Of a stretch of 64,000 bases of DNA, positions 564 to 48,925 are shown piece after piece. Under the pieces are notes generated by a model. It was not told where the DNA came from and did not search any database. It worked only from the letters and a program-made list of their open reading frames with translations. The stretch comes from Acidobacteriota bacterium (GTDB taxonomy: Bacteria; Acidobacteriota; Vicinamibacteria; Fen-336): positions 801 through 64,800 of the forward strand of contig JAJDNV010000090.1 in assembly GCA_022340545.1 (NCBI GenBank), written 5' to 3'. The position numbers were made by a program, and so were the translations under genes. Numbering within the stretch: the first letter of the stretch is position 1; each line of letters begins with the position of its first letter.

Positions 564-634
564 GCTATCGCGCCTCCCCGCGTGGGAGGCATCCTACCTG
601 CACCGCGGGGGAAACGGGAGCCGTCGCCCGCCGG

Positions 635-2299: not shown

Positions 2300-2427
2300 C
2301 TCGGCAGACGACCCCGCCCCTCCTCACGCACAGAGATCGGGGAATCTACCACGGACCGAGGCGGACGCGTGGCTTCTTCTCCGCCGGCCGCGGGGGGGCT
2401 GGGGCGGATCGCCTCCCCGGCGAGCGC

Positions 2428-2802: not shown

Positions 2803-2836
2803 GGCACACCTCCTCCCTGAAGTATCCGACATTGCC

Positions 2837-6147: not shown

Positions 6148-6833
6148 GGCGAGGCCTCGACCGCCTCTCCGAAGTAGTAGCGGTGGATGAAGGGCTCCTG
6201 GACGCCGAAGGACCAGTGCACGTCGCGAAGGTGATCGGCAGCGGCCCGCGCGTCGCCCCTCGCCACGAGCCGTACCAGAGCGGCGTGCTCCTCCAGAGAG
6301 GCAAGCTCCCAGTCCTTCACGAGCCCCTGGCGCCGGGGCCAGTCGTAGAGTCTTTGCTTCTGGATGCGCACGATCCGCACGAGGAGCTCGTTCTCGCAGC
6401 GGTCGAGGAACACGTCGTGGAAGGCGAGGTTCCGGTCGTAGTACAGGTCGAAGTCGTCGGCGAGCACGGCGCTCTTCATCTCCGCGTTCAGGCCGTTGAG
6501 GGTTCGTATCTCCGCCTCGCCAAGCTTCGGGAAGGCGGCGAGGACGGCCGTCCCCTCGAGGGCCCCGATCAGCTCGTAGAGATGGCGGATGTCCTCGAGG
6601 GTCAGTGGCCGCACCCGGACTCCCCGCCGGGGAAGGATCGCGACGAAGCCCTCCGCCTCGAGCTGGAGGAGGGCGTCCCGGAGCGGGGTGCGGCTCACGC
6701 CGAGTCGAGAGGCCAGCTCGTCCTGGTTGATGAACGACCCGGGTTGGATCTCACCGTGGGTCATGAGCAGGCGCAGGTGGTCGTAAACCTGCTCCCGGAG
6801 TGACTTGAGGACGAGCGGACCCGACGTGCCCAC
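6144..6833 (-). CDS. GntR family transcriptional regulator, FadR/FCD subfamily
   Basis: 229 aa with an N-terminal winged HTH (QDELASRLGVSRTPLRDALLQLEAEGFV) and a C-terminal FCD-like helical domain. GTG start at 6833. Its 3' end overlaps the activase start by 4 nt. Confidence 0.85.
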   Translation of the reverse strand: MGTSGPLVLKSLREQVYDHLRLLMTHGEIQPGSFINQDELASRLGVSRTPLRDALLQLEAEGFVAILPRRGVRVRPLTLEDIRHLYELIGALEGTAVLAAFPKLGEAEIRTLNGLNAEMKSAVLADDFDLYYDRNLAFHDVFLDRCENELLVRIVRIQKQRLYDWPRRQGLVKDWELASLEEHAALVRLVARGDARAAADHLRDVHWSFGVQEPFIHRYYFGEAVEASP

Positions 6834-18180: not shown

Positions 18181-18205
18181 GAGCGACAGGCCGACAGGCC
18201 CAGCT

Positions 18206-18395
18206 TCACCCGCGTGTCCCTTCCCGTGAGGACACGCGGGTGTCCGAGGCCTGTCTCAAGGCTTTTCCTGGCCTGTCGGAGGCGACGCTGGCGCGTCGCG
18301 GCGTCCACTCGGGGTCGACGCTCGTCTCGCAAGCTCGACTTCGCGTCCCCTGAGCCCCCTCCGTGGGGAGGGATAGGGTGGGGGGTCGGTGAATG
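18206..18395 (+). repeat. Structured intergenic repeat, long form, copy 1 of 4
   Basis: Shares with the copies at 39278 and 48805 a 5' hairpin module (cccgcgtgtccc..ggacacgcggg), GCCTnTCTCAAG, an internal ~120-bp hairpin-rich module (GCGACGCtggcGCGTCGC etc.), and a 3' core CCCTCCGTGGGGAGGGATAGGGTGGGGGGTC. Confidence 0.8.
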
Positions 18396-18726
18396 ATGAC
18401 GAGACCCACGCGTCCACGATGGAGCCGGCCCACAAGGCGACGATGGCGAGGGTGATCCACAGGAAGAATTCGGCGTTGTCGCGATGAATCTCGCGGGCCA
18501 GGCGGAAGGGGAGAAGGGGATCGATCTGGGCCGGATCAGTGGGCAGCCGGGCGAGCGTCTCCGCGGCGACCCGGCGAATGAGGGCCACAACCGCGACCAG
18601 GCTTCCGGTGGCGAAGGCGAGGCCGCGAACGGGGTGGCCGCTCATCAGCTGGCCGAGCCCCGGGAACACGAGACCCGACAGCAGCACGGACCGCCACGGG
18701 CGGCGGGGATTCGGGCGGGGCTCCAC
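18256..18726 (-). CDS. Small membrane protein (FPGLGQLMSG motif) whose C-terminal ~45 aa are encoded by repeat copy 1
   Basis: Candidate GTG at 18726 or ATG at 18645. The TM-rich core is ...WRSVLLSGLVFPGLGQLMSGHPVRGLAFATGSLVAVVALI...FFLWITLAIVALWAGSIV. The tail FTDPPPYPSPRRGLRGREVELARRAS... is the same peptide produced by reverse translation of repeat copy 3. Confidence 0.45.
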   Translation of the reverse strand: MEPRPNPRRPWRSVLLSGLVFPGLGQLMSGHPVRGLAFATGSLVAVVALIRRVAAETLARLPTDPAQIDPLLPFRLAREIHRDNAEFFLWITLAIVALWAGSIVDAWVSSSFTDPPPYPSPRRGLRGREVELARRASTPSGRRDAPASPPTGQEKP

Positions 18727-18810
18727 CGGGCTCACCGCCACGCCTCGTCCTTCCGTGCCGTGATATCCCGCACTCGCTCCCGCGTGCTCCGGACCGTATG
18801 ATGCGCTTCC

Positions 18811-19689
18811 GTGTCCACGGGGACTATAGACCGCGCGTCCCGGCCGTACCAGGACGTCCCACCGGCGGAGGCGGAGAGGCTGCTGGCTGGAGGGGCGGTG
18901 GCGCTCGACGTGCGGTCGGCGCGGGAGCACGAGGAGGCCGGGCACATCCCCGGCTCCCTCCTCCTGCCGCTGGCGTTTCTGGCTTCCGCTCCCGCCGTTC
19001 TTCCTGACGGCGGGCGGCCGGTGGTGTTGTGCTGCTCGGACGGGGTCCGCTCGCATCGTGCGGCTCGGCGTCTGGCCGAGGCCGGCGTCGAGAATCTCTT
19101 CGTCATCACCGGGGGAATGGAGGGGTGGACCGGACCGGTCGAGACCGGTCCGTCACCGATCTCCGGTCCCTCTTCGTGGCTGGTCGCCAATACGTCGCTC
19201 GTCCCTCCCGGTGCGCGGACGCTCGACGTGGCCTGCGGGCGAGGACGCCACGCCCTTCTGCTCGCCAGCGCCGGCTACATGGTGCGGGCGGTCGACCGGG
19301 ACGCGGCCCGCGTGGAGCAGCTCGCCGCCCTCGCCCGCCGGCTCCGTCTCCCGCTGGACGCCGAGGTCGTGGACCTCGAGAAGGGAGACGTCGATCTCGG
19401 AGACGGAGAGTGGGGGCTGGTGCTCGTCTTCCGCTACCTTCATCGACCGCTCTTTCCGGCGCTCGTCCGGGCGCTGCGCCCCGGGGGAGTCCTTCTCTGT
19501 GAGACGTTCACGAGGGGGCAGGAGCCGCAGCGGTCTCCGTCGAACCCCGTGTTCCTCCTCGAGCCGGGTGAACTGCCGGAGCTGGTGGCGCCCCTCGAGG
19601 TGGTCCGACAGCGGGAAGGGGAGTACGACGGGCGACGTGTGGCCGCGGTGGCTGCTCGCAAGCCGGCCCATCTTCCGCCCCGTCCCTGA
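18811..19689 (+). CDS. Rhodanese-domain / class I SAM-dependent methyltransferase fusion protein
   Basis: N-terminal rhodanese fold with catalytic-Cys loop (VVLCCSDGVRSHRAAR). C-terminal half LDVACGRGRHALLLASAGYMVRAVDRD is a glycine-rich SAM-binding motif I, followed by a TehB-like MTase fold. Confidence 0.7.
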   Translation: MSTGTIDRASRPYQDVPPAEAERLLAGGAVALDVRSAREHEEAGHIPGSLLLPLAFLASAPAVLPDGGRPVVLCCSDGVRSHRAARRLAEAGVENLFVITGGMEGWTGPVETGPSPISGPSSWLVANTSLVPPGARTLDVACGRGRHALLLASAGYMVRAVDRDAARVEQLAALARRLRLPLDAEVVDLEKGDVDLGDGEWGLVLVFRYLHRPLFPALVRALRPGGVLLCETFTRGQEPQRSPSNPVFLLEPGELPELVAPLEVVRQREGEYDGRRVAAVAARKPAHLPPRP

Positions 19690-35742: not shown

Positions 35743-36146
35743 TCGACTACCGCGCCGGAGACGACCTCGACCTCGATGAGGTGATCGACGTCTACGTCGA
35801 CTCGACGCTGGGGAAGCGTCGTCCGGTCGACGACCGGGCGCGAATGGACGGCATGCTCCGCTGCGCCAACCTCGTGGTCACCGCCTGGGACGCAGACCGC
35901 CTGATCGGGCTCGCCCGCTCGGTCAGCGACTTCCACTACGCGACGTACCTGTCCGATCTCGCGGTCCGCCTCTCGTACCAGAAGCGCGGGATCGGGATCG
36001 AGCTCATCCGCAGGACGCAGCAGGCTGCGCCCCAGGCAACGATCATCCTGCTCGCGGCCCCGGCGGCGGTGGAGTACTACCCGCGTATCGGGTTCACGCA
36101 GCACCAGAGCGCGTGGATCCTCCGCCCGGGAGAGGCCCTTCGATAG
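35738..36146 (+). CDS. GNAT family N-acetyltransferase
   Basis: C-terminal YQKRGIGIELIRR (acetyl-CoA binding R/Q-x-x-G-x-G/A) and overall GNAT length. TTG start overlaps the thiolase stop (TTGA); start is uncertain. Confidence 0.6.
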
Positions 36147-36255
36147 CCTTCTTCACGGCCCGCACCGGGGACACCTGCCACCGGGCAGAGGAGGCAGGTG
36201 CCGACCCGAGGCCAGTCTGGCACCCGCCTTCGGAGGGCTGAAAGCCCTGTGCCCT

Positions 36256-37212
36256 TCAGCGCCGCCGGACGGCGAGGAAGACGATGCCGCCGGTCTCCTC
36301 AGCAAAGGTGCGGCGGTCGGCGATCTCGCCCTCGGGGAGCCCCCCGGTCAGCGCGAACATCTCGGCGGCGTCGCGGTGGTGGATCTTCCAGTCCATGAAT
36401 GCGTCCATGTAGCCGACGTCCTTGATCCCCTCGAGGAAATTCGTGACGAGAAGGAGGCCCCCGGGTCGGGTGGCCTGGAAGAGGGCGTTCGTGAGGCGGA
36501 CCGCGGCGGGACGCGGCAGCAGGTCGTAGGGCCCGGCCGCGTAGACCAGGTTGAACGTCCCGAGATCGGGGGCGGCGGCGACGAGCTCGTTGACCGTGCT
36601 CTCCTTGATCTCGACCCCGAACGGACCCCACTTCTCCCGCACGACCCGCAGACTGTCGGCATCGCGATCCACGGCGAGGAACCGCTCGATTCGCCGGTTC
36701 CGGACGGCCTCACTGAGGGCGGCCTCGCGGAGGTGCCCGCAGCCGATCGTCATGACGTGCGTCTCGCGGCGGGTGTCGGAGGCCTGGTCGATCATCTTGG
36801 CCAGGATCTCCTTGCGCCGGCGGAGCGCGGTGGCCGCCATTCCCGCGCTGGTGTACCTGTAAATCTCCTGCCCGAGCGGGGTGGCCTCGTCGACGTAGGG
36901 TCGGACACCATCCTCCCCGTAGAAGAGATCGAGGAGCACGGCATCTCCGGGGAAGCCCCGCGGCTTGAAGTAGGCCCGCTCGGTCAGGGGGTCCTGGTGA
37001 ACCAGAAACCGAACCGGGTGTCCCACGCAGTCGACCCGGCAGAAGGCGTCCCAGTCGTCCCCGCTCGCCCGGCGGCGCATCTCGGCCAGGCTGTTGACGA
37101 GATGGTCCATCTCCTCGTAAACGCGGGCCTCGCTGGAGAAGGCGTCGTAGGCCCGGTCCAAAATGGCCCGACCCTGGGTCGCGTCTGCCACGATGTCCTC
37201 GAAGGGCCTCAT
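36256..37212 (-). CDS. Class I SAM-dependent methyltransferase
   Basis: From ATG 37212 (MRPFEDIVADA...). Motif I-like VMTIGCGHLRE, motif post-I FLAVDRDADS, and LLLVTNF downstream. Confidence 0.7.
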   Translation of the reverse strand: MRPFEDIVADATQGRAILDRAYDAFSSEARVYEEMDHLVNSLAEMRRRASGDDWDAFCRVDCVGHPVRFLVHQDPLTERAYFKPRGFPGDAVLLDLFYGEDGVRPYVDEATPLGQEIYRYTSAGMAATALRRRKEILAKMIDQASDTRRETHVMTIGCGHLREAALSEAVRNRRIERFLAVDRDADSLRVVREKWGPFGVEIKESTVNELVAAAPDLGTFNLVYAAGPYDLLPRPAAVRLTNALFQATRPGGLLLVTNFLEGIKDVGYMDAFMDWKIHHRDAAEMFALTGGLPEGEIADRRTFAEETGGIVFLAVRRR

Positions 37213-37304
37213 TGTAGACCGGTTGGGTCGGTGCGGACGGGTATTTCGCGTGCCCCACCCCGGATCGGGCAAACCGGAGACGAATTGGCGGGCGTCCGTG
37301 GCCT

Positions 37305-37360
37305 ATCTCAAGCATTTTCCTCCCCCTACGTGGGGAGGGATAGGGTGGGGGGTCATTGAA
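37305..37360 (+). repeat. Structured intergenic repeat, short form, copy 2 of 4
   Basis: GCCTATCTCAAGCATTTTCCTCCCCCTACGTGGGGAGGGATAGGGTGGGGGGTC. Lacks the 5' hairpin module and the ~120-bp internal module. Confidence 0.75.
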
Positions 37361-37369
37361 TAGCCAGGT

Positions 37370-37813
37370 CTACCGCACGACCTCGAGCCGCACCTTGCCC
37401 GTGCCGGGCCCAATGAGGCCGATGGCCCTGGCGGTGCCGCGGGAGACGTCGATCACTCTCCCTTTGTAGGCGGGGAAGCGGTCGTTGATGGTCACGACCG
37501 TGCTCTTCCCGGTCGAAAGCAACGTCACCTTCACCCGGGTGCCGAACGCCCAGTAGGGGTGGGCGGCGGTCATGGCGTCCTGGTTGTACCTCTCCCCGCT
37601 CGCCGTCGTCTTGCCGTGGAAGCCCGGCCCATACCAGGAGGCGATCCCCTCCGCAATCGTGCCCACCGCCGGGGCCTCAGGAGGCGGGAACTTGTAGGCC
37701 TTCGGGTCGGGATGGCGCGAGCACGCCCAGAACGTGCCCAGCATTGCCAGCACTGCGAGGGCGGCGGAGATATGGAGGCGCCGGACCGAAGCGGTCGGGG
37801 TCTGCCGTTGCAT
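37370..37813 (-). CDS. rlpA: RlpA-like double-psi beta-barrel (septal ring lytic transglycosylase RlpA family) lipoprotein
   Basis: From ATG 37813 (MQRQTPTASVRRLHISAALAVLAMLGTFWACS: lipobox-like). ASWYGPGFHGKTTASGERYN...HPYWAFGTRVKVT matches the DPBB/RlpA signature. The ATG overlaps the pyk stop (TGATG). Confidence 0.75.
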   Translation of the reverse strand: MQRQTPTASVRRLHISAALAVLAMLGTFWACSRHPDPKAYKFPPPEAPAVGTIAEGIASWYGPGFHGKTTASGERYNQDAMTAAHPYWAFGTRVKVTLLSTGKSTVVTINDRFPAYKGRVIDVSRGTARAIGLIGPGTGKVRLEVVR

Positions 37814-39231
37814 CACGACACCTCGTGCACCCGGAGCATGTTGGTGGCGGCGGCCACGTGCGAGTGGCCGGAGAGTATCAGGACCGTGTCCCCGCCCTTG
37901 ACCAGCCCCCGGGCCCGCAGACGCTCCTCCCCTCTGGCCAGGAGCTCGTCGCTGCTCTGCGCGGACTCCGCCCGCACCGGGACAACGCCCCACCAGAGTG
38001 CGAGCTGGTGGTAGACCCGCTCGTCACCGGTCACCGCGACCACCGGGACGCGCGGACGGAAGCCGGAGACGAGCCGGGCAGTGTTTCCCGATTCGGTAAA
38101 CGCGACGATCAGCTCGCAGCCGAGCTCCTGGGCCACCGAGGCCGCGACCCGGGCCAGGCTCCGCGCGACCCGCGAGCCCGGGCCCCGGGGGGCGTGGTCG
38201 GTGGCCACCGACGCGGCGTGCTCTTCGGTGTAGTCCGCGATCCGGGCCATCGTCGCAACTGCCTGGACCGGGAAGCGGCCCACCGCGCTCTCGCCCGAGA
38301 GCATCACCGCGTCCGTTCCGTCGAGGATGGCGTTGGCCACGTCGGAGGCCTCGGCACGGGTGGGACGGGGGTTGTCGATCATGCTCTCCAGCATCTGGGT
38401 CGCGGTGATGACCACGCGGCCCGCGGTGTTGGCGGCGGCGATGATCTTCTTCTGGACGGTCGGGACCTCCTCGGTGCCGATCTCCACCCCGAGGTCGCCC
38501 CGAGCCACCATCACCCCGTCGGCGATCTCCAGGATGGCGGCCAGGTTCTCCACTGCCTCCGGCTTCTCGATCTTGGCGATCACCGGCACGTCGTGGTCGA
38601 GCTCGAAGGTCCTGATGAGTGCCTTGATCTCCTCGATGTCGGCGGCCTCACGGACGAACGAGAGAGCCACGTAGTCGACGCCCTGCTCCAGGCCGAAGGC
38701 GAGATCCCGACGGTCCTTCTCGGTCAAGGCGGGGACGGACATCTTGATCCCGGGAAGGTTCATGCCCTTGTGGGACCGGAGCGGCCCGCCGTCCACGACC
38801 GCGCACTCGACACGACCCTGCGAGGCCTCGATCACCCGCAGCTCCAGGTTCCCGTCGTCGAGGAGGATCCGGTCACCCTCCTTCACGTCGAGGGGAAGGA
38901 CGTCGTAGGTCGTCGAGATCAGCTCCGGTGTGCCTTCGACCGATTCGTCGGTGGTGATGGCCACGCGAGCCCCGTCGCGGAGCTCGATCTCGCCTCCGGC
39001 CACCCGGCCGGTCCGGATCTTCGGCCCCGACAGGTCCTGGAGGAGCGCCAGCGGCTGGCCCAGTTGCGCCTCGATCTCACGAGCGGCTTTCACGACCCGG
39101 GCGTGTTCCTCGTGCGTCCCGTGGGAGAAGTTGAGGCGGAGCACGTTGACGCCGGCCTCGACGAGGTGCTCGAGCACTCGACGGTCCCGCGAGGCGGGAC
39201 CGATGGTAGCGACGATCTTCGTGCGGCGCAT
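37813..39231 (-). CDS. pyk: Pyruvate kinase
   Basis: From ATG 39231 (MRRTKIVATIGPAS...), with NFSHG, MVARGDLG and the full PK fold; about 472 aa. Confidence 0.9.
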   Translation of the reverse strand: MRRTKIVATIGPASRDRRVLEHLVEAGVNVLRLNFSHGTHEEHARVVKAAREIEAQLGQPLALLQDLSGPKIRTGRVAGGEIELRDGARVAITTDESVEGTPELISTTYDVLPLDVKEGDRILLDDGNLELRVIEASQGRVECAVVDGGPLRSHKGMNLPGIKMSVPALTEKDRRDLAFGLEQGVDYVALSFVREAADIEEIKALIRTFELDHDVPVIAKIEKPEAVENLAAILEIADGVMVARGDLGVEIGTEEVPTVQKKIIAAANTAGRVVITATQMLESMIDNPRPTRAEASDVANAILDGTDAVMLSGESAVGRFPVQAVATMARIADYTEEHAASVATDHAPRGPGSRVARSLARVAASVAQELGCELIVAFTESGNTARLVSGFRPRVPVVAVTGDERVYHQLALWWGVVPVRAESAQSSDELLARGEERLRARGLVKGGDTVLILSGHSHVAAATNMLRVHEVS

Positions 39232-39277
39232 GGGTCCCGCCGAGTATACGGCAGTGCGGCTGGCCATCAGGCCGAGA

Positions 39278-39485
39278 CTCGCCCGCGTGTCCCTTCCTTG
39301 GGGACCCGCGGGTGGACGGGGCCTATCTCAAGACGCCTCGCGGCCTGTGGGAGGCGACGCTGGCGCGTCGCAGCGTACACTCGGGGTCGACGCTCGTCTC
39401 GCCAGCTCGACTTCGCGTCCCCCGAGCCCCCTCCGTGGGGAGGGATAGGGTGGGGGGTCGATGAACGATTGTGGCCGCTGAGCGT
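39278..39485 (+). repeat. Structured intergenic repeat, long form, copy 3 of 4; lies between the divergent pyk and nuoA
   Basis: Near-identical module order to copy 1. It shares its 3' tail (GATGAaCGATTGTGGCCGC) with copy 4. Confidence 0.8.
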
Positions 39486-39641
39486 AGAACTCTCTCTCCT
39501 CACGGGGCTTGCGTGTCCTCGGGGCGTTTGACACCCCGCGAGGCCGGAAGCTATATTCCGGCGTCGATCACCATCTGCCGTCGCCGCCGTTCTTCAATCG
39601 TTAGACCAGGACCCTTCGCCCGACCGCCAGACGCTCCGATC

Positions 39642-39992
39642 ATGCCCAGCTACCTTCCGATCGTGATCCTGGGGGCGATCGCCCTGGGCTTCGGTGTCTT
39701 CGTGCTGGCGGCCTCCCACATCATCGGGCGCCCTCGCCCCGACGCCCGGAAGCTGTCCACCTACGAGTGCGGCATGCCGCCGGTCGGGACCGCCCGCGAG
39801 CGGTTTCCGATCAAGTTCTACCTCGTGTGCATGCTCTTCATCCTCTTCGACGTGGAGACCGCGTTCTTCTATCCGTGGGCGCTCGTCATGGACACGCTGG
39901 GGATCTACGGTCTGATGGCCATGGGGACATTCTTCCTCGTCCTGGCCGTGGGCTTCGTCTACGAGTGGAAGGTCGGAGCGATGGACTGGTAG
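39642..39992 (+). CDS. nuoA: NADH-quinone oxidoreductase subunit A
   Basis: 116 aa, three TM helices; ...STYECGMPPVG...FDVETAFFYPWA matches the NuoA/ND3 signature. Confidence 0.85.
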   Translation: MPSYLPIVILGAIALGFGVFVLAASHIIGRPRPDARKLSTYECGMPPVGTARERFPIKFYLVCMLFILFDVETAFFYPWALVMDTLGIYGLMAMGTFFLVLAVGFVYEWKVGAMDW

Positions 39993-39996
39993 CGGC

Positions 39997-41817
39997 ATGG
40001 AGCTCACCCCCGACAACCTGAAGGCCTTCGAAGAGATCGTCGCCCGCTACCCCGTCAAGCGCTCCGCCCTCCTGCCGACGTTGCGGCTCGTGCAGGAGCA
40101 GGAGGGCTGGATCAGCCGCGAGGCGATGGAGTACATCGCGAAGCTCCTGGACCTCAGTCCGGCCCAGGTGAAGGACACCGCCAGCTTCTACACGATGTTC
40201 CATCTCGAGCCGAAGGGGAAGACGGTCATCGAGGTGTGCACGACGCTCTCCTGTGCCCTCGGCGGGGCGGAGAAGCTGCTCGGGCACACGTGCAGGAAGC
40301 TCGGGATCGAGCCCGGGGGCACGACCGCGGACGGTAGGTTCACGGTCAAAGAGGTGGAGTGCCTCGCCGCCTGCGGGGGCGCTCCCGCGGTCCAGGTGAA
40401 CGGGGAGTGGCTCGAGCACGCCACCGAGGCCGACCTCGATCGGGTGCTGGCCGGGGAGACCGTGCGCCGGACCTTCGAGTGGCCGAAGAGCCCGGGCGAG
40501 CACCTACTCTTCCAGAACGTCTGGAAGGAGAACTCCACCTCGATCGACGTCTACAAGGCCTCCGGTGGCTACGCGAAGCTCGGCGAGTGGCTGAGGTTCG
40601 AGCCCGAGATCCTCATCGAGGAGGTCAAGAAGTCGAACCTGCGCGGCCGCGGCGGCGCAGGGTTCCCGACCGGGATGAAGTGGGGGTTTCTTCCCAAGGA
40701 GAGCCCCAGGCCCCGGTACATGTGTGTCAACGCCGACGAGAGCGAGCCCGGGACCTACAAGGACCGGGTCATCATCGAGCGCGATCCCCACCGCCTGATC
40801 GAGTCGATCGTGGTGTCCTGCCATGCGATCCGATCGAAGACCGCCTACATCTACATCCGCGGCGAGTTCCATGAGGGCGCGCGAACGCTCGAGAAGGCCC
40901 TGGCCGAGGCGAGGGCGGCGGGCTACGTCGGCAAGGACATCCTGGGCACCGGCATCGACGTCGATATCTGGGTCCACCGCGGCGCCGGCTCCTACGAGTG
41001 CGGGGAGGAGACGGCCCTCATCGAGTCGCTCGAGGGGAGGCGGGGCCAGCCCCGCATCAAGCCCCCGTTCCCGGCGGTGGTGGGGGTGTACGGCTGCCCG
41101 ACGATCGTGAACAACGTCGAGACCCTGGTCAACGTGCCGCTCATCCTCGAGCGCGGAGCGGAGTGGTTCGCAAGCTACGGCACCGAGAAGAACGGCGGAC
41201 CCAAGCTCTACTCGATCAGCGGTCACGTCGTCCGTCCTGGCAGCTACGAGGCCCCGATGGGGCGGATCACACTGCGTGACCTCATCTACGGCGAGGGGTA
41301 TGCGCAGGGGATCAAGGACGGCCGCAAGCTCAAGGCGGTCGTCCCCGGGGGCTCCTCGACGCCCGTCCTCACCGCGGACGAAATCGACATCGCGATGGAC
41401 TTCGACGGCGTGGCCAAGGCGGGATCGATGCTCGGCTCCGCTGGCACCGTCGTGATGGACGACTCGACCTGCATGGTGTGGATGGCGAAGAACCTCATCT
41501 ACTTCTACAAGCACGAGTCCTGCGGCAAGTGCTCCCCCTGCCGGGAGGGGACGGGCTGGATGTTGCGGCTCCTCGAGCGCATCGAGGCGGGGGAGGCCCA
41601 GGAGAAGGACCTGGATCTCCTCTGGAAGGTCACGGACTCGATCTCGGGCAAGACCGTGTGCCCGTTCGGCGACGCCGCGATCGCCCCGCCCCAGTCGACG
41701 CTCCAGAAGTTCCGTGAGGAGTTCGAGTACCACGTCCGCGAGGGACGCTGCTGGAAGTCGGTGGCGCCCACCTTTGAAGAGGCGAAGGCGAAGTCGGGCA
41801 GGGCGGTGTCTGCGTGA
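39997..41817 (+). CDS. nuoEF: NADH-quinone oxidoreductase fused subunits E and F (NuoE-NuoF fusion)
   Basis: The N-terminal ~160 aa carry the NuoE thioredoxin-like 2Fe-2S cysteines (CTTLSC...ECLAACGGAP). The remainder is NuoF: GRGGAGFPTGMKW FMN/NADH site and ESCGKCSPCREG 4Fe-4S. It follows nuoA directly with no nuoB/C/D between. Confidence 0.85.
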   Translation: MELTPDNLKAFEEIVARYPVKRSALLPTLRLVQEQEGWISREAMEYIAKLLDLSPAQVKDTASFYTMFHLEPKGKTVIEVCTTLSCALGGAEKLLGHTCRKLGIEPGGTTADGRFTVKEVECLAACGGAPAVQVNGEWLEHATEADLDRVLAGETVRRTFEWPKSPGEHLLFQNVWKENSTSIDVYKASGGYAKLGEWLRFEPEILIEEVKKSNLRGRGGAGFPTGMKWGFLPKESPRPRYMCVNADESEPGTYKDRVIIERDPHRLIESIVVSCHAIRSKTAYIYIRGEFHEGARTLEKALAEARAAGYVGKDILGTGIDVDIWVHRGAGSYECGEETALIESLEGRRGQPRIKPPFPAVVGVYGCPTIVNNVETLVNVPLILERGAEWFASYGTEKNGGPKLYSISGHVVRPGSYEAPMGRITLRDLIYGEGYAQGIKDGRKLKAVVPGGSSTPVLTADEIDIAMDFDGVAKAGSMLGSAGTVVMDDSTCMVWMAKNLIYFYKHESCGKCSPCREGTGWMLRLLERIEAGEAQEKDLDLLWKVTDSISGKTVCPFGDAAIAPPQSTLQKFREEFEYHVREGRCWKSVAPTFEEAKAKSGRAVSA

Positions 41818-42857
41818 CGCCCCTCGCCGAGGAGCTGCTCGTCACGTTCGTCAAGATCGTGATCGTCGTGGGGGCGCTCCTGGGTGGTTTCTCCGTCATG
41901 ACCTGGGTGGAGCGGCGGAGCCTCGCCTTCATGCAATACCGCCTCGGCCCCAACCGGACCGGGCCTTTCGGGATCCTCCAGCCCATCGCCGACGGCATCA
42001 AGCTGTTCTTCAAGGAAGAGGTGATGCCGGTCGCTGCGAACAAGTGGACCTTCCTCGCCGCCCCGGTGGTCGCGGTGGCGACGGCGCTCTTGGCGACGGC
42101 GGTGATCCCCTACGGGCCGCCCTTCGAGGCGTTCGGAAGGACCCTGCAGATCCAGATTGCCGACATCGAGGTGGGGCTCCTCTTCATCTTTGCCGTCACC
42201 GCCCTCGGCGTCTACGGGGTCGTCCTGGCCGGCTGGGCGGCCAACAACAAGTACTCGCTCCTCGGCGGGCTCCGCTCCTCGGCCCAGATGTTCTCGTACG
42301 AGCTGGCGCTGGGCTTCTCGTGGGTCACCCTGATCCTTGCCGCGCGCTCCTTCCGGATCAATGACATCGTGGACACCCAGGCGGGCGGATTCTGGCACTG
42401 GAACGTCGTCGTGCACTTCCCGGCCTTCATCGTCTACTTCCTGGCCGCCACCGCCGAGGTGGCCCGGATCCCGTTCGACCTCCCGGAGGGTGAGAGCGAG
42501 ATCGTGGCCGGATTCCACACCGAGTATGCGTCCATGCGGTTCGCCCTCATCCAGATGGCCGAGTACATCAACATGATCACGGTGACCGTTCTCCTCGCGA
42601 ACCTCTTCTTCGGGGGCTGGCACTCCGGCGTCCCGGGGATGCCGGAGAGCCTGGGTGGCTTCCCGCTGGGCTTCGTGTGGTGGGGCCTCAAGGTGGCCTT
42701 CTTCCTCTTCGTCTTCATCTGGCTTCGGGGGACGCTGCCGCGCTTCCGCTACGATCAGCTCATGCAGTTCGGCTGGAAGGTCCTGATCCCGGTGGCCGCG
42801 GTCTGGGTCATGACCTTCGCGGTCCTGTGGGTCGTCGTCGGTGGTGGTCCGCGATGA
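41814..42857 (+). CDS. nuoH: NADH-quinone oxidoreductase subunit H
   Basis: 347 aa polytopic with the ND1 signature (...AEYINM..., RYDQLM). GTG start overlaps the nuoEF stop (GTGA). Confidence 0.9.
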   Translation: MTPLAEELLVTFVKIVIVVGALLGGFSVMTWVERRSLAFMQYRLGPNRTGPFGILQPIADGIKLFFKEEVMPVAANKWTFLAAPVVAVATALLATAVIPYGPPFEAFGRTLQIQIADIEVGLLFIFAVTALGVYGVVLAGWAANNKYSLLGGLRSSAQMFSYELALGFSWVTLILAARSFRINDIVDTQAGGFWHWNVVVHFPAFIVYFLAATAEVARIPFDLPEGESEIVAGFHTEYASMRFALIQMAEYINMITVTVLLANLFFGGWHSGVPGMPESLGGFPLGFVWWGLKVAFFLFVFIWLRGTLPRFRYDQLMQFGWKVLIPVAAVWVMTFAVLWVVVGGGPR

Positions 42858-43351
42858 TGATCGACGCCGTCCTCTTCTACGTCTTCGCCGCCATCGCGGT
42901 CGCGTCGGCCGTGGTCGTCATTGGCCAGCGCAACCCCATGTACTCGGCCTTTGCCCTGGTGGTGACGCTGTGCTCGGTCGCCGTCATCTTCGGCCTGCTC
43001 GGCTCCCCGTTCATCGCCGTTCTGCAGGTGATCGTGTACGCGGGCGCGATCATGGTCCTCTTCCTGTTCGTGCTGATGCTCCTCAACGTGAAGCGCGAGA
43101 AGGACTCGCCGAGCAGGGGCCAGCGCACCCTCAGCGGGGTTGCCCTCGCCCTGGTGACGGTGCTGGTTCTCCAGGCGGGGGCCGTCCTGCTCCGCTCGAG
43201 GCCGACCCCGGCCCCGGACTACGACGCCTCGACCTTCGAGATGGCGAAGATCCTCTTCTCGCCGCACTTCCTCTACGCCTTCGAGGCGACCTCCATCCTC
43301 ATCCTCGCCGCCCTGGTGGGAGCGGTGGTGCTGGCGAAGAAGGAGCTCTAG
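42854..43351 (+). CDS. nuoJ: NADH-quinone oxidoreductase subunit J
   Basis: 165 aa ND6-like from ATG 42854, overlapping the nuoH stop as ATGA. No nuoI lies between nuoH and nuoJ. Confidence 0.85.
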
Positions 43352-43355
43352 CGCG

Positions 43356-43667
43356 ATGGAGAACCCCGCCTTCGTGCACCACGCCGTCGTGCTGAGCCTC
43401 ATCCTCTTCGCCCTCGGCACCCTCGGTGTCTTCCTGCGCCGCAACGTCATCACCGTGCTCATGTGCGTCGAGCTGATGCTGAACGGCGTCAACCTGGCCT
43501 TCGTGGCCTTCAGCCGGGCCCAGGGTACGCTCGACGGCCAGGTCCTAGTGTTCTTCGTGATGGTGGTGGCGGCGGCGGAGGCCGCAGTCGGGCTGGCCAT
43601 CGTCATCGCCCTCCACCGGCACCGGGACACGCTGGACCTGGACGCCTTCAACCTCATGAAGGGATAG
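43356..43667 (+). CDS. nuoK: NADH-quinone oxidoreductase subunit K
   Basis: 103 aa, ND4L signature ([17 protein letters not shown]). Confidence 0.85.
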
Positions 43668-43670
43668 GTC

Positions 43671-45584
43671 GTGCTCGACGATCCACTGCTCAAGATCCTG
43701 CCCTTCGCCATCCTGCTCCTGCCCCTCGGCGGGTTCGTCGTTCTCGCCCTCTTTGGCGACTGGATCAAGCGGGACAAGGAGGAGACGGGCGCCGCCTGGC
43801 TCGCCTGCGCCACCGTAATCATCTCCTTCGGCCTCGCGGCCTGGACGACGGTGCGGCTCTACGGCCTGGTGGCGGGCGAGGGCGGGCTCCGGTTCTTCCA
43901 GCCGTACCTCGGTTATGAGTGGATGGAGGCGGGCGGGTTCAGCGTGCCCTACAGCCTCCTGGTGGATCCCCTCTCCTGCGTGATGATGCTGGTGGTCACC
44001 GGGGTGGGCTCTCTCATCCACGTCTACTCGGTGGGCTACATGGCCCACGACGAGGACCGGGTCCCCTACTTCTCGTATCTGAACCTCTTCACCTTCTTCA
44101 TGCTGCTGCTCGTGCTGGGCGGCAACCTCCCGCTGATGTTCGTCGGCTGGGAGGGGGTGGGGCTGTGCTCCTACCTCCTCATCGGGTTCTGGTACCGCAA
44201 GGACAGCGCCGCCGCCGCCGGCCTCAAGGCGTTCATCGTCAACCGGATCGGCGACGCGGGGCTCATCCTGGGCATGATCTTCGTCTTCCACGCCTTCGGG
44301 AGCCTCGACCTGGTGGACATCGCCGACAACGCGGGGTCGCTGGCCCCCGAGGGCCTGTGGGAGTTCGGGCCGGCGACGATCGCCGCCCTCCTTCTCTTCG
44401 TCGGCGCCACCGGGAAGAGCGCCCAGATCCCCCTCCACGTGTGGCTGCCTGATGCCATGGAGGGCCCCACGCCGGTCTCCGCCCTCATCCACGCCGCCAC
44501 CATGGTGACCGCGGGCGTCTACATGGTGGCGCGCCTCGGGCCGCTCTACCACGTCTCGGAGACCGCGATGATGACGGTCGCGGTCGTCGGCGCGGTGACG
44601 GCCCTCATGGCCGCGACCATCGCCCTCGTCCAGACCGACATCAAGCGGGTGCTGGCCTACTCCACGGTGAGCCAGCTCGGCTACATGTTCCTGGCCTGTG
44701 GGGTGGGGGCGTTCGGGGTCGGCATCTTCCACCTCTACACCCACGCCTTCTTCAAGGCGCTCCTCTTCCTCGGCTCGGGCTCCGTGATCCACGCGATGTC
44801 GGGGGAGCAGGACATGCAGAGGATGGGCGGCCTCCGAAAGAGAATCCCCTGGACCTTCTGGACGTTCCTCGCGGGAACGCTCGCAATCGCCGGGATCCCC
44901 TTCTTCGCCGGCTTCTTCAGCAAGGACGAGATCCTCGCCGCGGCCCTGGGCCACCCCGTGCTCCTCGGGATCGGTCTCTTCACCGCGCTCCTGACCGCCT
45001 TCTATATGGCCCGTCTGCTCTTCCTGACGTTCTTCGGGGATTTCCGCGGAGGGGAGGAGGCCGAGCACCACCTGCACGAGTCGCCGTGGGTCATGCTTGT
45101 GCCGCTCATCCTGCTCGCCATCGGCTCCGCCGCGGGGGGCTTCGTCAAGATCCCGGAGATCGTCCAGCCCGTCTTCCGCCTGGGCCACGGGCATATCCCC
45201 CACGTGGCGTGGCTCCCGGTAGCGGCCACGCTCAGCGCGATCGCCGGCATCCTCGGCGCCTACTATCTCTACCTGGCGATGCCCGAGCTGCGGGCGGGGC
45301 TCGCCTCCACGTTCCGGCCCGCCCTCCGCGTCTTCGCCGCCAAGTACTACTGGGATGACGTCTATAACGGTTTCGTCCGGCGGGTGGTCGTGAGGGGCAG
45401 TGACCTGGTGCTCTGGCAGGGCGTCGACAACCGCGTGGTCGACGGTGCGGTCAACCGGACCGCCACCATCACCGGGGCGCTCGCCGAGATGCTTCGCCCC
45501 CTGCAGACCGGCTTCGTGCGGCAATACGCGCTACTCATCCTCGCCGGGGCGGTCGCGCTCCTCGGGTACCTCCTCTGGCCATGA
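43671..45584 (+). CDS. nuoL: NADH-quinone oxidoreductase subunit L
   Basis: 637 aa ND5-like antiporter subunit, GTG start. Confidence 0.9.
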   Translation: MLDDPLLKILPFAILLLPLGGFVVLALFGDWIKRDKEETGAAWLACATVIISFGLAAWTTVRLYGLVAGEGGLRFFQPYLGYEWMEAGGFSVPYSLLVDPLSCVMMLVVTGVGSLIHVYSVGYMAHDEDRVPYFSYLNLFTFFMLLLVLGGNLPLMFVGWEGVGLCSYLLIGFWYRKDSAAAAGLKAFIVNRIGDAGLILGMIFVFHAFGSLDLVDIADNAGSLAPEGLWEFGPATIAALLLFVGATGKSAQIPLHVWLPDAMEGPTPVSALIHAATMVTAGVYMVARLGPLYHVSETAMMTVAVVGAVTALMAATIALVQTDIKRVLAYSTVSQLGYMFLACGVGAFGVGIFHLYTHAFFKALLFLGSGSVIHAMSGEQDMQRMGGLRKRIPWTFWTFLAGTLAIAGIPFFAGFFSKDEILAAALGHPVLLGIGLFTALLTAFYMARLLFLTFFGDFRGGEEAEHHLHESPWVMLVPLILLAIGSAAGGFVKIPEIVQPVFRLGHGHIPHVAWLPVAATLSAIAGILGAYYLYLAMPELRAGLASTFRPALRVFAAKYYWDDVYNGFVRRVVVRGSDLVLWQGVDNRVVDGAVNRTATITGALAEMLRPLQTGFVRQYALLILAGAVALLGYLLWP

Positions 45585-47140
45585 GCGTCCTGAACCAGCA
45601 CCTGCTCAGCGTCCTCATCTTCCTGCCCGTGGTGGGTGCGGTCGCCATCGCCCTCAGCCGGCGCGAGTCGGAGACGCTCCAGAAGATCCTCGGCCTCGTC
45701 TTCTCGACCGCGGGCTTCGCCCTGTCCCTCCTCCTGGTGCGGGGCTTCCAGGACGTGGCCGGCATGCAGTTCGTGGAGAGGGGGCGGTGGATCCCGGCCT
45801 GGGGAATCTCCTACGCCGTCGGCGTGGACGGCCTGTCTCTGTGGCTGGTGATCCTGACCACGTTCCTCACCCCGCTCGCCCTCTTGGGCTCCTGGAGCTC
45901 CATCGACCGGCGGGTCAAGGAGTTCGTCGTCTTCATGCTGCTGCTCGAGGCGGGGATGATCGGGGTCTTCGTGGCCCTCGACCTCTTCCTCTTCTACGTC
46001 TTCTGGGAGGCGATGCTGATCCCGATGTACTTCCTCATCGGGATCTGGGGGCACGAGAGGCGCATCTACGCCGCGGTGAAGTTCTTCCTCTTCACCTTCG
46101 CCGGCAGCGTGCTCATGCTGGTCGCGTTCCTGGTCCTATACCGGACCGCTGGCGTGGGCAGCTTCGATCTCGCGGTGCTCGTCGCTGCGCCCGTCGACCC
46201 CGCCCTGCAGGTCTGGCTGTTCCTCGCCTGCGCGCTGGCCTTCGCCATCAAGGTTCCGATGTTCCCGTTCCACACGTGGCTCCCCGACGCCCACGTCGAG
46301 GCCCCCACCGCGGGCTCGGTGATCCTGGCCGGGGTGCTGCTCAAGATGGGGGGCTACGGCTTCCTGCGGATCGCCATCCCGCTCTTTCCCGAGGCGGCGG
46401 TGCGTTTCGCCCCCCTGATCGGCGTCCTGGCCGTCATCGGGATCATCTACGGGGCCCTCGTCGCGCTGGTGCAGCCCGACCTCAAGAAGCTCGTGGCGTA
46501 CTCGTCGGTCGCCCACCTCGGCTTCGTGATGCTCGGCATCGCCGCCTTCACGACCACCGGTCTGGTTGGATCCGTCTACCAGATGCTGAACCATGGTATC
46601 TCGACCGGGGCGCTCTTCTTCCTGGTGGGGATGCTCTACGACCGACGCCACACCCGGCTCATCTCGGAGTTCGGGGGCCTCAAGGCGATCATCCCCTGGT
46701 ACACCGCGGTCTTTCTCATGATCAGCCTCTCCTCGATCGCCATGCCCGGTTTCAACGGCTTCGTGGGCGAGTTCCTGATCCTCGTGGGCTCCTGGCCCTT
46801 CAGCCCGACGCTGGTGGTGCTTGCCTCCCTGGGCGTCATCCTGGCCGCCGGCTACATCCTCTGGATGGTGAAGCGCGTGTTCTACGGTGAGCCCACCAAC
46901 CCGAAGAACGAGAAGCTCCCCGACCTCAGTCTCCGGGAGGCGGCCGTCCTCGTGCCCCTCGTCGCCCTCGCCTTCTTCATGGGCGTGGCGAGCCCCCTCT
47001 TCACGAAGCGCATCGAGCCCGCCGCGGACGCCCTCGTGGTGCAGGTGCAGGAGAGGACCCGGCCCATCGCCGCCGCGAGCCTGGGCCCCGTCGCACCGCC
47101 CCGGGCGTCCCGCGCCGACCCCGCGGAGGCCCAGCGGTGA
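45581..47140 (+). CDS. nuoM: NADH-quinone oxidoreductase subunit M
   Basis: 519 aa ND4-like; overlaps nuoL by 4 nt. Confidence 0.9.
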   Translation: MSVLNQHLLSVLIFLPVVGAVAIALSRRESETLQKILGLVFSTAGFALSLLLVRGFQDVAGMQFVERGRWIPAWGISYAVGVDGLSLWLVILTTFLTPLALLGSWSSIDRRVKEFVVFMLLLEAGMIGVFVALDLFLFYVFWEAMLIPMYFLIGIWGHERRIYAAVKFFLFTFAGSVLMLVAFLVLYRTAGVGSFDLAVLVAAPVDPALQVWLFLACALAFAIKVPMFPFHTWLPDAHVEAPTAGSVILAGVLLKMGGYGFLRIAIPLFPEAAVRFAPLIGVLAVIGIIYGALVALVQPDLKKLVAYSSVAHLGFVMLGIAAFTTTGLVGSVYQMLNHGISTGALFFLVGMLYDRRHTRLISEFGGLKAIIPWYTAVFLMISLSSIAMPGFNGFVGEFLILVGSWPFSPTLVVLASLGVILAAGYILWMVKRVFYGEPTNPKNEKLPDLSLREAAVLVPLVALAFFMGVASPLFTKRIEPAADALVVQVQERTRPIAAASLGPVAPPRASRADPAEAQR

Positions 47141-48588
47141 GCGGCGAGCTCGATCTCCGTCCCCTCGTCCCGGCGATCATCGTCGGCGTCACCGGCCTCG
47201 TGGTCCTCCTCGCCCAGGCGTTCACGCCGAAGGACAGGCGGGCTCCCTCGGCGCCGCTCAGCCTCACCGGCCTCCTCGCCGCCCTCGCTGCGGTGTGGCT
47301 CCTGGCCAGCGGGGGCGGCCGCGGGGCGGTCCTGGCGAACGCGGTGAGCGCAGACGCGTACTCCCTCTTCTTCCAGGCACTCCTCCTCGGGATCGCCGCG
47401 GTGGCGGTGCTGCTGTCGCCGTCCTACTTGCGCGCGAACGGGCTCGATCGCGGCGAGTACTACGCGCTGCTGCTCTTCTCGGTGGTGGGGATGCTCGGCC
47501 TGGTGTCGAGCCTCGAGCTCGTGTCGATGTTCGTGGCCCTCGAGATCATGTCCATCGCCCTGTACGGGATGGCGGGGTTGTACCGCAGCCGGATGGAGAG
47601 CCAGGAGGCCGCGCTCAAGTACTTCGTCACCGGGGCGTTCTCTTCTGCCTTCTTCCTGTATGGCGTCGCGCTTCTCTACGGCGTGAGCGGCAGCACGTCG
47701 CTCGACCGCCTGGAGTGGGCGGTGAGCACGCTCACGACGGATTCGGCCGCCCTCGCCCTCCTCGGCGCGGGGATGCTCCTCGTTGGCTTCGGCTTCAAGA
47801 TCGCGAGCGTTCCCTTCCACATGTGGGCGCCCGACGTCTACGAGGGAGCCCCCACCCCCGCGACCGCCCTCATGTCGGCCGGGGTCAAGGCCGCGGCCTT
47901 CGGCGCGCTGCTGCGGGTGTTCGGCTCTGCGCTCCACGCGCTCGCCGGCGAGTGGCAGCCGCTGGTGGCCTCGTTGGCGGTCATCACCATGGTCGTCGGG
48001 AACCTCGCAGCGCTGGCCCAGGGCAACCTGAAGCGCATGCTCGCCTTCTCGTCGGTCGCCCATGCCGGCTACGTGCTCACCGCGCTCGTGGCCAGCCCCG
48101 GCCAGGCCGGGGAGGCGGTGCTGTTCTACCTGGTCGTCTACGGGGCCGTGAACCTCGGCGCCTTCGGGACGATCGCCGCCCTCTCCCGGGAGGGACGCGA
48201 GCCGCTCTCCCTGGGCGACGTGGCCGGAATGGCCGAGCGCCGACCCGCGCTGGCCGCCGCCCTCGCCGTGTTCCTCGTGTCGCTCACCGGCATCCCCGTG
48301 ACCGCGGGGTTCGTGGGCAAGTTCTACCTGTTCAATGCCGCCGTGACCGCGGGCTGGGTGGGGCTCGCCCTCGTGGGCGTGCTGATGAGCGTCGTCTCCG
48401 CCTACTACTACCTGCGGGTCGTGGTGGCGATGTACATGCGCGACCCGCTGGGTGAGGACACCTGGGCGCGCGTGTCGCCATCGGCCACGGTGGCTCTCGC
48501 CCTCTCCGCCGTGATCACGCTCGTCCTCGGGATCTACCCGGCGCCGGTCCTGACCCTGGCCCGCATCGCCGCCCGGTCGCTCCTGTAG
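47137..48588 (+). CDS. nuoN: NADH-quinone oxidoreductase subunit N
   Basis: 483 aa ND2-like; GTG start overlaps nuoM by 4 nt. Confidence 0.9.
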   Translation: MSGELDLRPLVPAIIVGVTGLVVLLAQAFTPKDRRAPSAPLSLTGLLAALAAVWLLASGGGRGAVLANAVSADAYSLFFQALLLGIAAVAVLLSPSYLRANGLDRGEYYALLLFSVVGMLGLVSSLELVSMFVALEIMSIALYGMAGLYRSRMESQEAALKYFVTGAFSSAFFLYGVALLYGVSGSTSLDRLEWAVSTLTTDSAALALLGAGMLLVGFGFKIASVPFHMWAPDVYEGAPTPATALMSAGVKAAAFGALLRVFGSALHALAGEWQPLVASLAVITMVVGNLAALAQGNLKRMLAFSSVAHAGYVLTALVASPGQAGEAVLFYLVVYGAVNLGAFGTIAALSREGREPLSLGDVAGMAERRPALAAALAVFLVSLTGIPVTAGFVGKFYLFNAAVTAGWVGLALVGVLMSVVSAYYYLRVVVAMYMRDPLGEDTWARVSPSATVALALSAVITLVLGIYPAPVLTLARIAARSLL

Positions 48589-48804
48589 GCGGGCTGGTCC
48601 GCGGAGGGGCGCTCCAGAGGTCCGCTACGCGGGGACGCTCGGTTGGGCGTTGGCCTCTTCAACCGGAAGGTGCGCCCGCCCTCGCTCGAATCGCCCCCCA
48701 CGCTTCACGGACATTTCATTGAGGGAGGGGGGCTCCACGCCCCGCTTCGCGGACCCCTGGCGCGCCGGGGCGACGAAAAGGTTGGGCTGGCCACCAGGCC
48801 TAGG

Positions 48805-48925
48805 CTCGCCCGCGTGTCCCCTCCCTGAGGACACGCGGGAGTACGAGGCCTATCTCAAGCATTCCCCTCCCCCTACGTGGGGAGGGATAGGGTGGGGGGT
48901 CGATGACCGATTGTGGCCGCCGAGC
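48805..48925 (+). repeat. Structured intergenic repeat, intermediate form, copy 4 of 4; downstream of nuoN
   Basis: Has the 5' hairpin module plus GCCTATCTCAAG plus the short 3' core (CCCCTCCCCCTACGTGGGGAGGGATAGGGTGGGGGGTCGATGACCGATTGTGGCCGC). Lacks the internal module. Confidence 0.8.

Follow-up and report, generated by a model that had tools for sequence, protein, structure and literature searches.

A partial nuo operon with a fused nuoE-nuoF gene in Vicinamibacteria and the dispersed intergenic repeats that lie around it

The 64-kb stretch of DNA analysed here (hereafter the window) originates from a soil acidobacterium of the class Vicinamibacteria and carries a partial operon for respiratory complex I (nuo), which spans positions 39642-48588 of the plus strand and consists of eight tightly packed genes: nuoA, a fused nuoE-nuoF, nuoH, nuoJ, nuoK, nuoL, nuoM and nuoN. 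Copies of an intergenic repeat lie on both sides of it. The reading that best accounts for these features, to which a probability of about 0.75 was given as a joint statement, is that this is the normal nuo operon of its lineage, that nuoB, nuoC, nuoD, nuoG and nuoI are unlinked to it, that a conventional complex I is formed, and that the repeats, of the repetitive extragenic palindromic (REP) or miniature inverted-repeat transposable element (MITE) kind, are recent and independent arrivals.

The split layout is normal for the lineage of the source organism. Relatives compared as DNA numbered 25, comprising 20 GTDB species-representative genomes and 5 contigs from metagenomes or metagenome-assembled genomes (MAGs; L001-L005), and for one further relative, the contig carrying P0001, with a NuoEF 99% identical to that of the window, the context was taken from gene calls only. 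In all of these pyk on the minus strand was followed by nuoA-EF-H-J-K-L-M-N and then by selA on the minus strand, either directly or 1-2 genes downstream. NuoEF identity to the window ranged between 74 and 95% in the 25 loci with DNA and between 74 and 99% with the P0001 contig included. In this 99%-identical relative the operon is intact and its intergenic lengths equal those of the window. Both the split and the EF fusion are therefore clade-wide, and in this Vicinamibacteria clade the layout is fixed. Of the relatives with DNA, contig CAVOYO010000002 (L023) was the closest; its NuoEF is 95% identical, and it is collinear with the window over 35.7-51.7 kb at 85-89% nucleotide identity.

Gene content and the fused NuoE-NuoF protein

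The genes were assigned using Pfam matches above curated cut-offs and tblastn with Escherichia coli Nuo proteins, and the assignments agreed throughout with those of the initial annotation. The features, in window positions, are as follows.

39642..39992, plus strand: nuoA, 116 aa; PF00507, E 1e-35; 31% identity to E. coli NuoA
39997..41817, plus strand: fused nuoE-nuoF, 606 aa, single open reading frame (ORF); PF01257 and PF01512, SLBB, PF10589
41814..42857, plus strand: nuoH; PF00146, E 8e-118
42854..43351, plus strand: nuoJ, 165 aa; PF00499, E 1e-36; E. coli NuoJ tblastn match in the same frame
43356..43667, plus strand: nuoK; PF00420, E 5e-31
43671..45584, plus strand: nuoL, 637 aa; PF00662, PF00361; 45% identity to E. 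coli NuoL
45581..47140, plus strand: nuoM; PF00361, PF01059; 39% identity to E. coli NuoM
47137..48588, plus strand: nuoN; PF00361; 35% identity to E. coli NuoN
39528..39557, plus strand: putative sigma-70-like promoter (TTGACA, 18 nt, TATATT), 11 of 12 consensus positions
48953 to about 50350, minus strand: selA, convergent with nuoN

The membrane arm is complete within the operon: NuoA, H, J, K, L, M and N (7 of 7) exceeded the Pfam cut-offs and also gave tblastn matches, and the operon subunits were 31-46% identical to their E. coli counterparts. The start of nuoA was set by analogy with 116-aa orthologues. An ORF at 42841-43395 was considered for nuoJ and rejected as a spurious overlapping frame; the true nuoJ frame ends at 43351. 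Overlaps of 4 nt occur at four gene junctions of the operon, including those where the nuoH start overlaps the nuoEF stop and the nuoJ start overlaps the nuoH stop. The gap between nuoA and nuoEF is 4 nt, and the stop codon of nuoEF overlaps the start of nuoH, leaving no room for nuoC, nuoD or nuoG. The nuoEF/nuoH overlap suggests that these two genes may be translationally coupled. The putative promoter was the sole match in 37100-39700, where 0.1 would be expected, and its sequence is kept in L023, downstream of the site at which the third copy of the repeat is inserted in the window. The operon is flanked by pyk, divergent on the minus strand upstream of nuoA, and by selA, convergent on the minus strand downstream of nuoN. 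The window has a G+C content of approximately 70% and its remaining genes are ordinary housekeeping genes.

Within the 606-aa fusion the NuoE domain (2Fe-2S_thioredx) occupies residues 12-152 and the NuoF domains (Complex1_51K, SLBB and NADH_4Fe-4S) residues 210-579. The concern that the fused gene had been mis-assigned, for example by containing regions resembling NuoB, NuoC or NuoD, was not borne out. The translation contains the cysteine motifs of cluster N1a (CTTLSC and CLAAC), the glycine-rich motifs for flavin mononucleotide (FMN) and NADH, GRGGAGFPTGMKW and GAGSYECGEETAL, and the N3 motif CGKCSPC...C. The closest PDB chains to the F part were NuoF subunits of complex I (top match 8e9g_F, E 1.6e-139). 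Soluble hydrogenases and formate dehydrogenases also have NuoF-like subunits, but these scored lower. From these matches the flavoprotein is predicted to be of the complex I type, as opposed to that of hydrogenases or formate dehydrogenases.

The best 120 database relatives of the fusion were 78-99% identical to it and almost all 602-617 aa in length, and the named carriers among them were MAGs of Acidobacteria or Vicinamibacteria. The E-F frame, when checked for frame and stop codons, was unbroken in 20 of the 22 relatives showing both E and F. In the remaining two, the long-read MAGs L022 and L023, the frame is apparently shifted; L045, also included here, reads as frameshifted too. Coverage in tblastn had suggested that the E-F fusion is widespread across phyla, and this was rejected by the same frame and stop-codon check, which resolved E and F as adjacent, separate genes. 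Beyond the Vicinamibacteria clade the two are separate with the exception of L033, where a fused EF is followed by nuoG. As a protein architecture, the fusion of a NuoE-like to a NuoF-like part is common, with approximately 45 of the best 150 cluster representatives (50% identity) aligning over residues 11-585 without interruption, as do FdsB and HoxF in the PDB. A literature search found nothing specific on a nuoE-F fusion within a nuo operon or on complex I of Vicinamibacteria. The fusion probably just fixes the NuoE:NuoF stoichiometry at 1:1, and represents a naturally tethered version of the NuoE-NuoF flavoprotein part of the NADH-oxidising (N) module.

Unlinked subunits and other nuo cluster types

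None of nuoB, nuoC, nuoD, nuoG or nuoI was found in the window by tblastn using the NuoB, NuoCD, NuoG and NuoI proteins of E. coli K-12, and Pfam analysis of most of its long ORFs yielded no Oxidored_q6, Complex1_30kDa, Complex1_49kDa or NuoG domains, confirming the absence of these five genes from the 64 kb that had been claimed in the initial annotation. The sole exception among the tblastn results was a weak, generic 4Fe-4S/ferredoxin match at 5698-6057 on the minus strand, at the 5' end of the ORF of a glycyl-radical enzyme. This large gene (PFL-like, Gly_radical) lies within a stop-to-stop ORF of 1085 codons (2837-6091, minus strand), the first ~280 of which include a NuoI-like 4Fe-4S stretch that may belong to it or to a separate gene upstream. 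Since the five subunits are absent from the window, the quinone-reducing (Q) module together with NuoG and NuoI would have to be encoded outside it, a deduction already made, with replacement as the other option, when the locus was first annotated.

Electrons in complex I pass from FMN to cluster N3, through the NuoG clusters and the NuoI clusters to N2 in NuoB, and on to quinone at the interface of NuoB, NuoD and NuoH. With NuoB, C, D, G and I absent, the locus on its own offers no electron path from FMN to quinone, and the established route is what makes all five of them necessary to the enzyme. In the scheme proposed here, one sigma-70-like promoter would drive the tightly packed operon, which would supply the whole proton-pumping membrane arm and, as one NuoE-NuoF polypeptide, the NADH-oxidising flavoprotein. 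NuoG, I, B, D and C, which link the flavoprotein to the quinone site, would be made from unlinked genes, and their products would join those of the operon to give a conventional complex I. Unlinked genes are proposed because other Acidobacteria encode nuo subunits at unlinked loci. Peatland acidobacterial MAGs carry nuoACD(EFG)HJKLMN and encode nuoB and nuoI away from this operon (Hausmann et al. 2018, ISME J, PMC6018796), and other Acidobacteria possess up to three nuo operons in addition to orphan nuoB and nuoI (Hausmann et al. 2018, PMC6018796).

All fetched loci were annotated with E. coli Nuo proteins and their frames checked. A second operon type, nuoA-B-C-(SIS)-D-E-F-H-J-K-L-M-N, with 12 nuo genes and lacking nuoG and nuoI, was present in L087-L094 and L215-L219, a SIS-domain gene often sitting between nuoC and nuoD. 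It was found via the NuoD of L042, a locus where nuoD lies beside E, F and H and where F is 62% identical to that of the window; the best 120 relatives of this NuoD were 81-100% identical, one of them named Vicinamibacterales, and the contexts read for these and for two NuoB relatives were all of this type. Examples, both on Vicinamibacterales-like contigs, are as follows.

8533-20005 of L091: nuo operon of the second type
9620-20516 of L219: nuo operon of the second type

Compared subunit by subunit, the second type is 45-64% identical to the window operon, as against ~60-95% between orthologues within each type. Its carriers have G+C contents of 0.63-0.69 and the NCBI name Vicinamibacterales bacterium, whereas those of the window type have G+C contents of 0.66-0.725 and the name Vicinamibacteria bacterium; these differences suggest that the two operon types belong to different lineages. 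Orphan nuoG and nuoI may be a feature of the whole class Vicinamibacteria.

Several findings weigh against unlinked genes for a conventional enzyme. No match to NuoB, NuoCD, NuoG or NuoI was found within 10 kb of the operon in the 25 relatives, and none of nuoB, C, D, G or I was found in 682 kb of repeat-bearing metagenome contigs searched by tblastn with both E. coli and Vicinamibacterales Nuo queries. Furthermore, every traceable Vicinamibacteria-like NuoD or NuoB belongs to the other operon type, A-B-C-D-E-F-H-J-K-L-M-N, on contigs with lower G+C content and other taxon names. The lack of the five genes near the operon in 25 genomes would also fit a non-canonical enzyme in which NuoEF has another partner, or a connecting module not of Nuo type takes the place of NuoB, C, D, G and I; fused NuoE-F-like proteins are, moreover, typical of the soluble enzymes FdsB and HoxF. 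Such an enzyme was judged very unlikely. The NuoF part is closest to the chains of respiratory complex I, NuoH and NuoA, the partners of NuoB and NuoD in forming the quinone site, are among the conserved products of the operon, and no candidate gene for a substitute connector is conserved beside the operon in the relatives.

Alternatively, the operon might encode a second membrane arm and NADH module, with one NuoB, C, D, G and I set serving both it and a co-resident nuo operon, for instance of the second type, to give two isoforms of the enzyme. The occurrence of the second operon type in MAGs labelled Vicinamibacterales points in this direction, an identity of 45-64% being the depth of old paralogues, as do the multiple nuo operons with orphan nuoB and nuoI in other Acidobacteria (PMC6018796). 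This is nevertheless improbable, since the carriers of the two types differ in G+C content and NCBI name and, among the matches listed, no large contig of one type equals one of the other type in size. A broader version would posit three or more unlinked complex I transcription units with nuoG and nuoI orphaned class-wide, the A-EF-H-J-K-L-M-N set serving as a 'chassis' that borrows its connecting subunits NuoB, C, D, G and I, perhaps from an A-B-C-D-E-F-H-J-K-L-M-N operon in the same cell. This version is doubtful; if true, the cell would make two complex I isoforms sharing a Q-module. A shared connecting module or a non-Nuo connector is thus considered the less likely account, and a conventional complex I completed from unlinked genes is preferred.

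Other arrangements were encountered among the remaining loci. The order A-C-D-E-F-G-H-J-K-L-M-N without B and I was present in Acidobacteriaceae and Bryobacteraceae, in agreement with the description in PMC6018796, and a full nuo gene set was present in loci from Desulfobulbus and Planctomycetes. A Bdellovibrionota MAG (L075, 9200-18344) carries nuoA-C-E-F-H-J-K-L-M-N and lacks B, D, G and I, and another (L074, 7822-15263) has a cluster restricted to the peripheral arm, B-CD-E-F-G-I, after which B and CD occur once more; the two represent further nuo operons split by module. Clusters confined to the peripheral arm were also found in L053-L072 and L084 (e.g. L069, 6855-12904), comprising a NuoI-like ferredoxin, an unknown ORF of 258 aa, nuoB, nuoD, nuoF and a short nuoG, in MAGs of Eisenbacteria, Binatia, Dormibacterota, Latescibacterota and Limnocylindrales. 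In these clusters nuoC and nuoE were not detected, and there were no membrane-arm genes within 10 kb. L042 (VFZH01000207.1, labelled Acidimicrobiia) and L016 (CAXMOH010000036.1, Hyphomicrobium) carry nuo genes of Vicinamibacteria type, 81-89% identical to Vicinamibacteria proteins; misbinning of public MAGs probably accounts for their labels. L001 (1717-4032), L002 (2941-5178) and L003 (1-2034) contain, a few kb upstream of the operon, radical-SAM and ScmC-family genes with an ORF of 53-54 aa, possibly a peptide-modification cluster; this group was not seen in the window.

Intergenic repeats around the operon

A 25-nt core, GTGGGGAGGGATAGGGTGGGGGGTC, occurs exactly four times in the window, on the plus strand in each case, where none would be expected (100 shuffles). 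The copies of the repeat that contain it are listed below.

18183..18397, plus strand: copy 1, long form; directly after the stop codon of fpg (mutM), 21 kb from the operon
about 37248..37359, plus strand: copy 2, short form; flanked by minus-strand genes on both sides, one methyltransferase-like and the other DPBB_1
39256..39469, plus strand: copy 3, long form; between divergent pyk and nuoA, upstream of the nuoA promoter
48783..48906, plus strand: copy 4, short form; in the spacer of convergent nuoN and selA, 195 nt past the nuoN stop codon

The fpg gene beside copy 1 was assigned by Pfam. The operon lies between copies 3 and 4, which are directly oriented, and copy 2 is further upstream, as had been noted initially, and position 39278, from which the repeat-bracketed module was then taken to begin, lies inside copy 3. 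These two copies are 9.5 kb apart and are 87% identical over 75 nt at their 5' end and 95% over 57 nt at their 3' end. The long form (copies 1 and 3; ~215 nt) is ~87% identical between its two representatives and consists of the halves of the short form separated by an extra segment of 94 nt, which copies 2 and 4 (~110-125 nt) lack. The short form is made up of a predicted 14-15-bp hairpin (CGCGTGTCC...GGACACGCG), the motif GGCCTATCTCAAG, a predicted 8-bp hairpin (CCCCTCCC...GGGAGGGG) and a G-rich tail. Its predicted hairpin stability corresponded to z-scores of -2.1 on the plus strand and -3.3 on the minus strand; the predicted fold of copy 2 was no better than that of shuffled sequences (z -0.7). 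No Rfam family matched the repeat at gathering scores, the matches being at chance level (E of 0.15 or above). Each of the four copies is intergenic, in a different spacer, and all share one strand whatever direction the neighbouring genes take. The core sites (18363-18387, 37330-37354, 39435-39459 and 48877-48901) contain four G-runs (GGGG A GGG ATA GGG T GGGGGG), the first of which doubles as the 3' arm of the second hairpin, and by its composition the invariant core may have G-quadruplex potential.

The repeat is absent from the corresponding positions in relatives. An 18-nt repeat core was missing from 86 of 86 nuo loci fetched, none of the 25 relatives with DNA carried the repeat, and blastn with the four copies matched flanking sequence only. 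At the site of copy 2, 100 nt in the window (37248-37347) correspond to 3 nt between the same flanks in L023, an empty site, and at that of copy 3, 262 nt (39255-39516) correspond to 60 nt, an insertion of about 200 nt. The breaks in collinearity between the window and L023 coincide exactly with copies 2 and 3, which on this comparison appear to be recent insertions relative to L023. L023 already has the motif GGGGGTCAATGAA at its empty copy 2 site, where it may be a preferred target or a remnant. At the site of copy 4 the nuoN-selA spacer of L023 is an unrelated sequence of 435 nt with a small ORF (18680-18935, ~80 aa, motif WFPRL...GIHWPDIDEDISV), which resembles DUF2442, and this spacer is evidently a variable spot. 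L023 also has ~6 kb of extra sequence (396-6467) relative to window positions 36137-36164; this indel, which separates the methyltransferase-like gene from the thiolase/acetyltransferase region, has no connection with the repeats.

A scan of Joint Genome Institute (JGI) metagenomes with a 21-nt core returned at least 120 contigs, most of which have a G+C content of ~70% and conserved flanks in the order TYCCCTCCCCCTACGT, core, TCGATGAA. Many of the listed contigs contain tandem units of ~72 nt. Among the matches listed, the first-hairpin module of the window copies was found in ~6 metagenome contigs, and the 94-nt insert of the long form was confined to the window. Core sites fell within predicted coding sequence in 13% of 97 cases, compared with 68% of random positions in the same contigs. 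Tandem arrays of the ~72-nt high-GC element occur in L106, L110, L116, L134, L159, L174 and L186, where solo GGGTGGGGGGTCGATGAA remnants lie beside full units. The same 21-mer is found in L109, L111, L126, L130, L149, L167, L181, L192, L202 and L206, with G+C contents of 0.41-0.52, in a very different, palindromic context, CCCTCCCCCC TCGAG GGGGAGGG...GATTGCTTAATAAAATTT, seemingly a repeat family of other organisms that is either unrelated or convergent.

On the strength of their distribution, the window repeats behave like an ordinary, dispersed extragenic family of REP- or MITE-like elements, apparently undescribed. A modular, hairpin-forming family abundant in high-GC soil bacteria would thus have entered the spacers recently and independently of the operon, and the bracketing needs no special explanation because there are four copies in 64 kb and the family prefers spacers. 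This part of the interpretation is weakened by the lack of evident terminal inverted repeats or target-site duplications, as judged at the copy 2 junction, and by the lack of any sign, in the window ORFs scanned, of a RAYT- or IS200-type transposase close to the repeats.

The initial annotation had proposed that copies 3 and 4 might delimit a 9-kb module open to duplication or excision. On such a reading, recombination between them would delete, duplicate or transfer the partial nuo cluster. As direct repeats around the operon they could physically sustain homologous recombination. The suggestion was not upheld and is considered highly unlikely to be correct. The operon occupies the same chromosomal position in all relatives examined, the repeat-free ones included; copies 2 and 3 have empty sites in L023; the 99%-identical relative has an intact operon; and the repeat, with its widespread and mostly intergenic core, is a genome-wide family. 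The operon interval contains nuo genes only, with no integrase or transposase in a Pfam scan, and its G+C content of 0.66-0.69, against ~0.70 for the window, shows no compositional break. A genomic island bounded by direct repeats was accordingly rejected on composition, gene content and synteny. It had also been considered at the outset that the gene order might be universal in the phylum and show no repeat association: at the level of the clade this is essentially so, the order being universal there and the repeat absent from the 25 relatives with DNA.

A further interpretation, raised initially in the form of operon-boundary elements, is that the copies have been co-opted as regulatory or boundary elements, copy 4 as a 3' hairpin that stabilises or terminates the mRNA and copy 3 by insulating the divergent pyk and nuoA promoters or binding a protein between them. 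The predicted GC-rich 14-15-bp and 8-bp hairpins of the short form and the proximity of copy 4 to the end of nuoN are consistent with this, and enterobacterial REP elements stabilise upstream mRNA. However, no intrinsic terminator with a U-tract was predicted at copy 4, copy 3 lies upstream of the conserved promoter and hence outside the transcript, copy 2 is antisense between two minus-strand genes, and the 25 relatives manage the same operon without the repeat. Co-option of this kind is therefore rather unlikely, though a boundary role may have arisen as a side effect, and the repeats are best regarded as independent insertions. The family may mark recent genome change in these uncultured bacteria.

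Relation to known systems

Split acidobacterial nuo operons have already been published, and the window type represents a further variant. The lineage co-encodes the membrane arm and the flavoprotein and exiles every subunit that lies physically between them, a natural experiment on the expression and assembly of complex I. In annotation pipelines that score module completeness from operon context, complex I of the Vicinamibacteria, an abundant class in soil, will be under-called.

The repeats share with REP, REPIN, BIME and MITE-like elements a short length (~70-215 nt), a GC-rich, hairpin-forming and modular structure, a strongly intergenic and sometimes tandem disposition, a high copy number and presence or absence among relatives. 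They differ from REP, REPIN and MITE elements in that no RAYT-type transposase, clear inverted pair, terminal inverted repeats or target duplications were seen, and also in the run with G-quadruplex potential in their core.

Relative to the canonical nuoA-N operon of 14 genes in E. coli and Thermus thermophilus, the order A, E, F, H, J, K, L, M, N in the window is the canonical one minus five; B, C, D, G and I are lacking, and the cofactor motifs are intact. The nuoACD(EFG)HJKLMN type described in PMC6018796 comes from the same phylum, likewise has nuoB and nuoI outside the operon and keeps the A...H-J-K-L-M-N order, whereas the window operon is also without nuoC, nuoD and nuoG and has nuoE fused to nuoF. 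The second type from Vicinamibacterales is the closest outgroup by sequence (F ~60%, K ~64% and M ~62% identity), belongs to the same class and similarly lacks nuoG and nuoI; unlike the window operon, it retains nuoB, nuoC and nuoD, has separate nuoE and nuoF, and lies in a different genomic neighbourhood. The fused protein itself has the domain order of FdsB of formate dehydrogenase (PDB 7e5z_B) and HoxF of NAD-reducing hydrogenase (PDB 5xf9_A), in which a thioredoxin-like 2Fe-2S domain comes ahead of those for FMN and 4Fe-4S within a single chain of ~570-600 aa. In contrast to FdsB and HoxF, the fusion in the window sits in an operon for the membrane arm of complex I, and its F part is nearer to respiratory NuoF.

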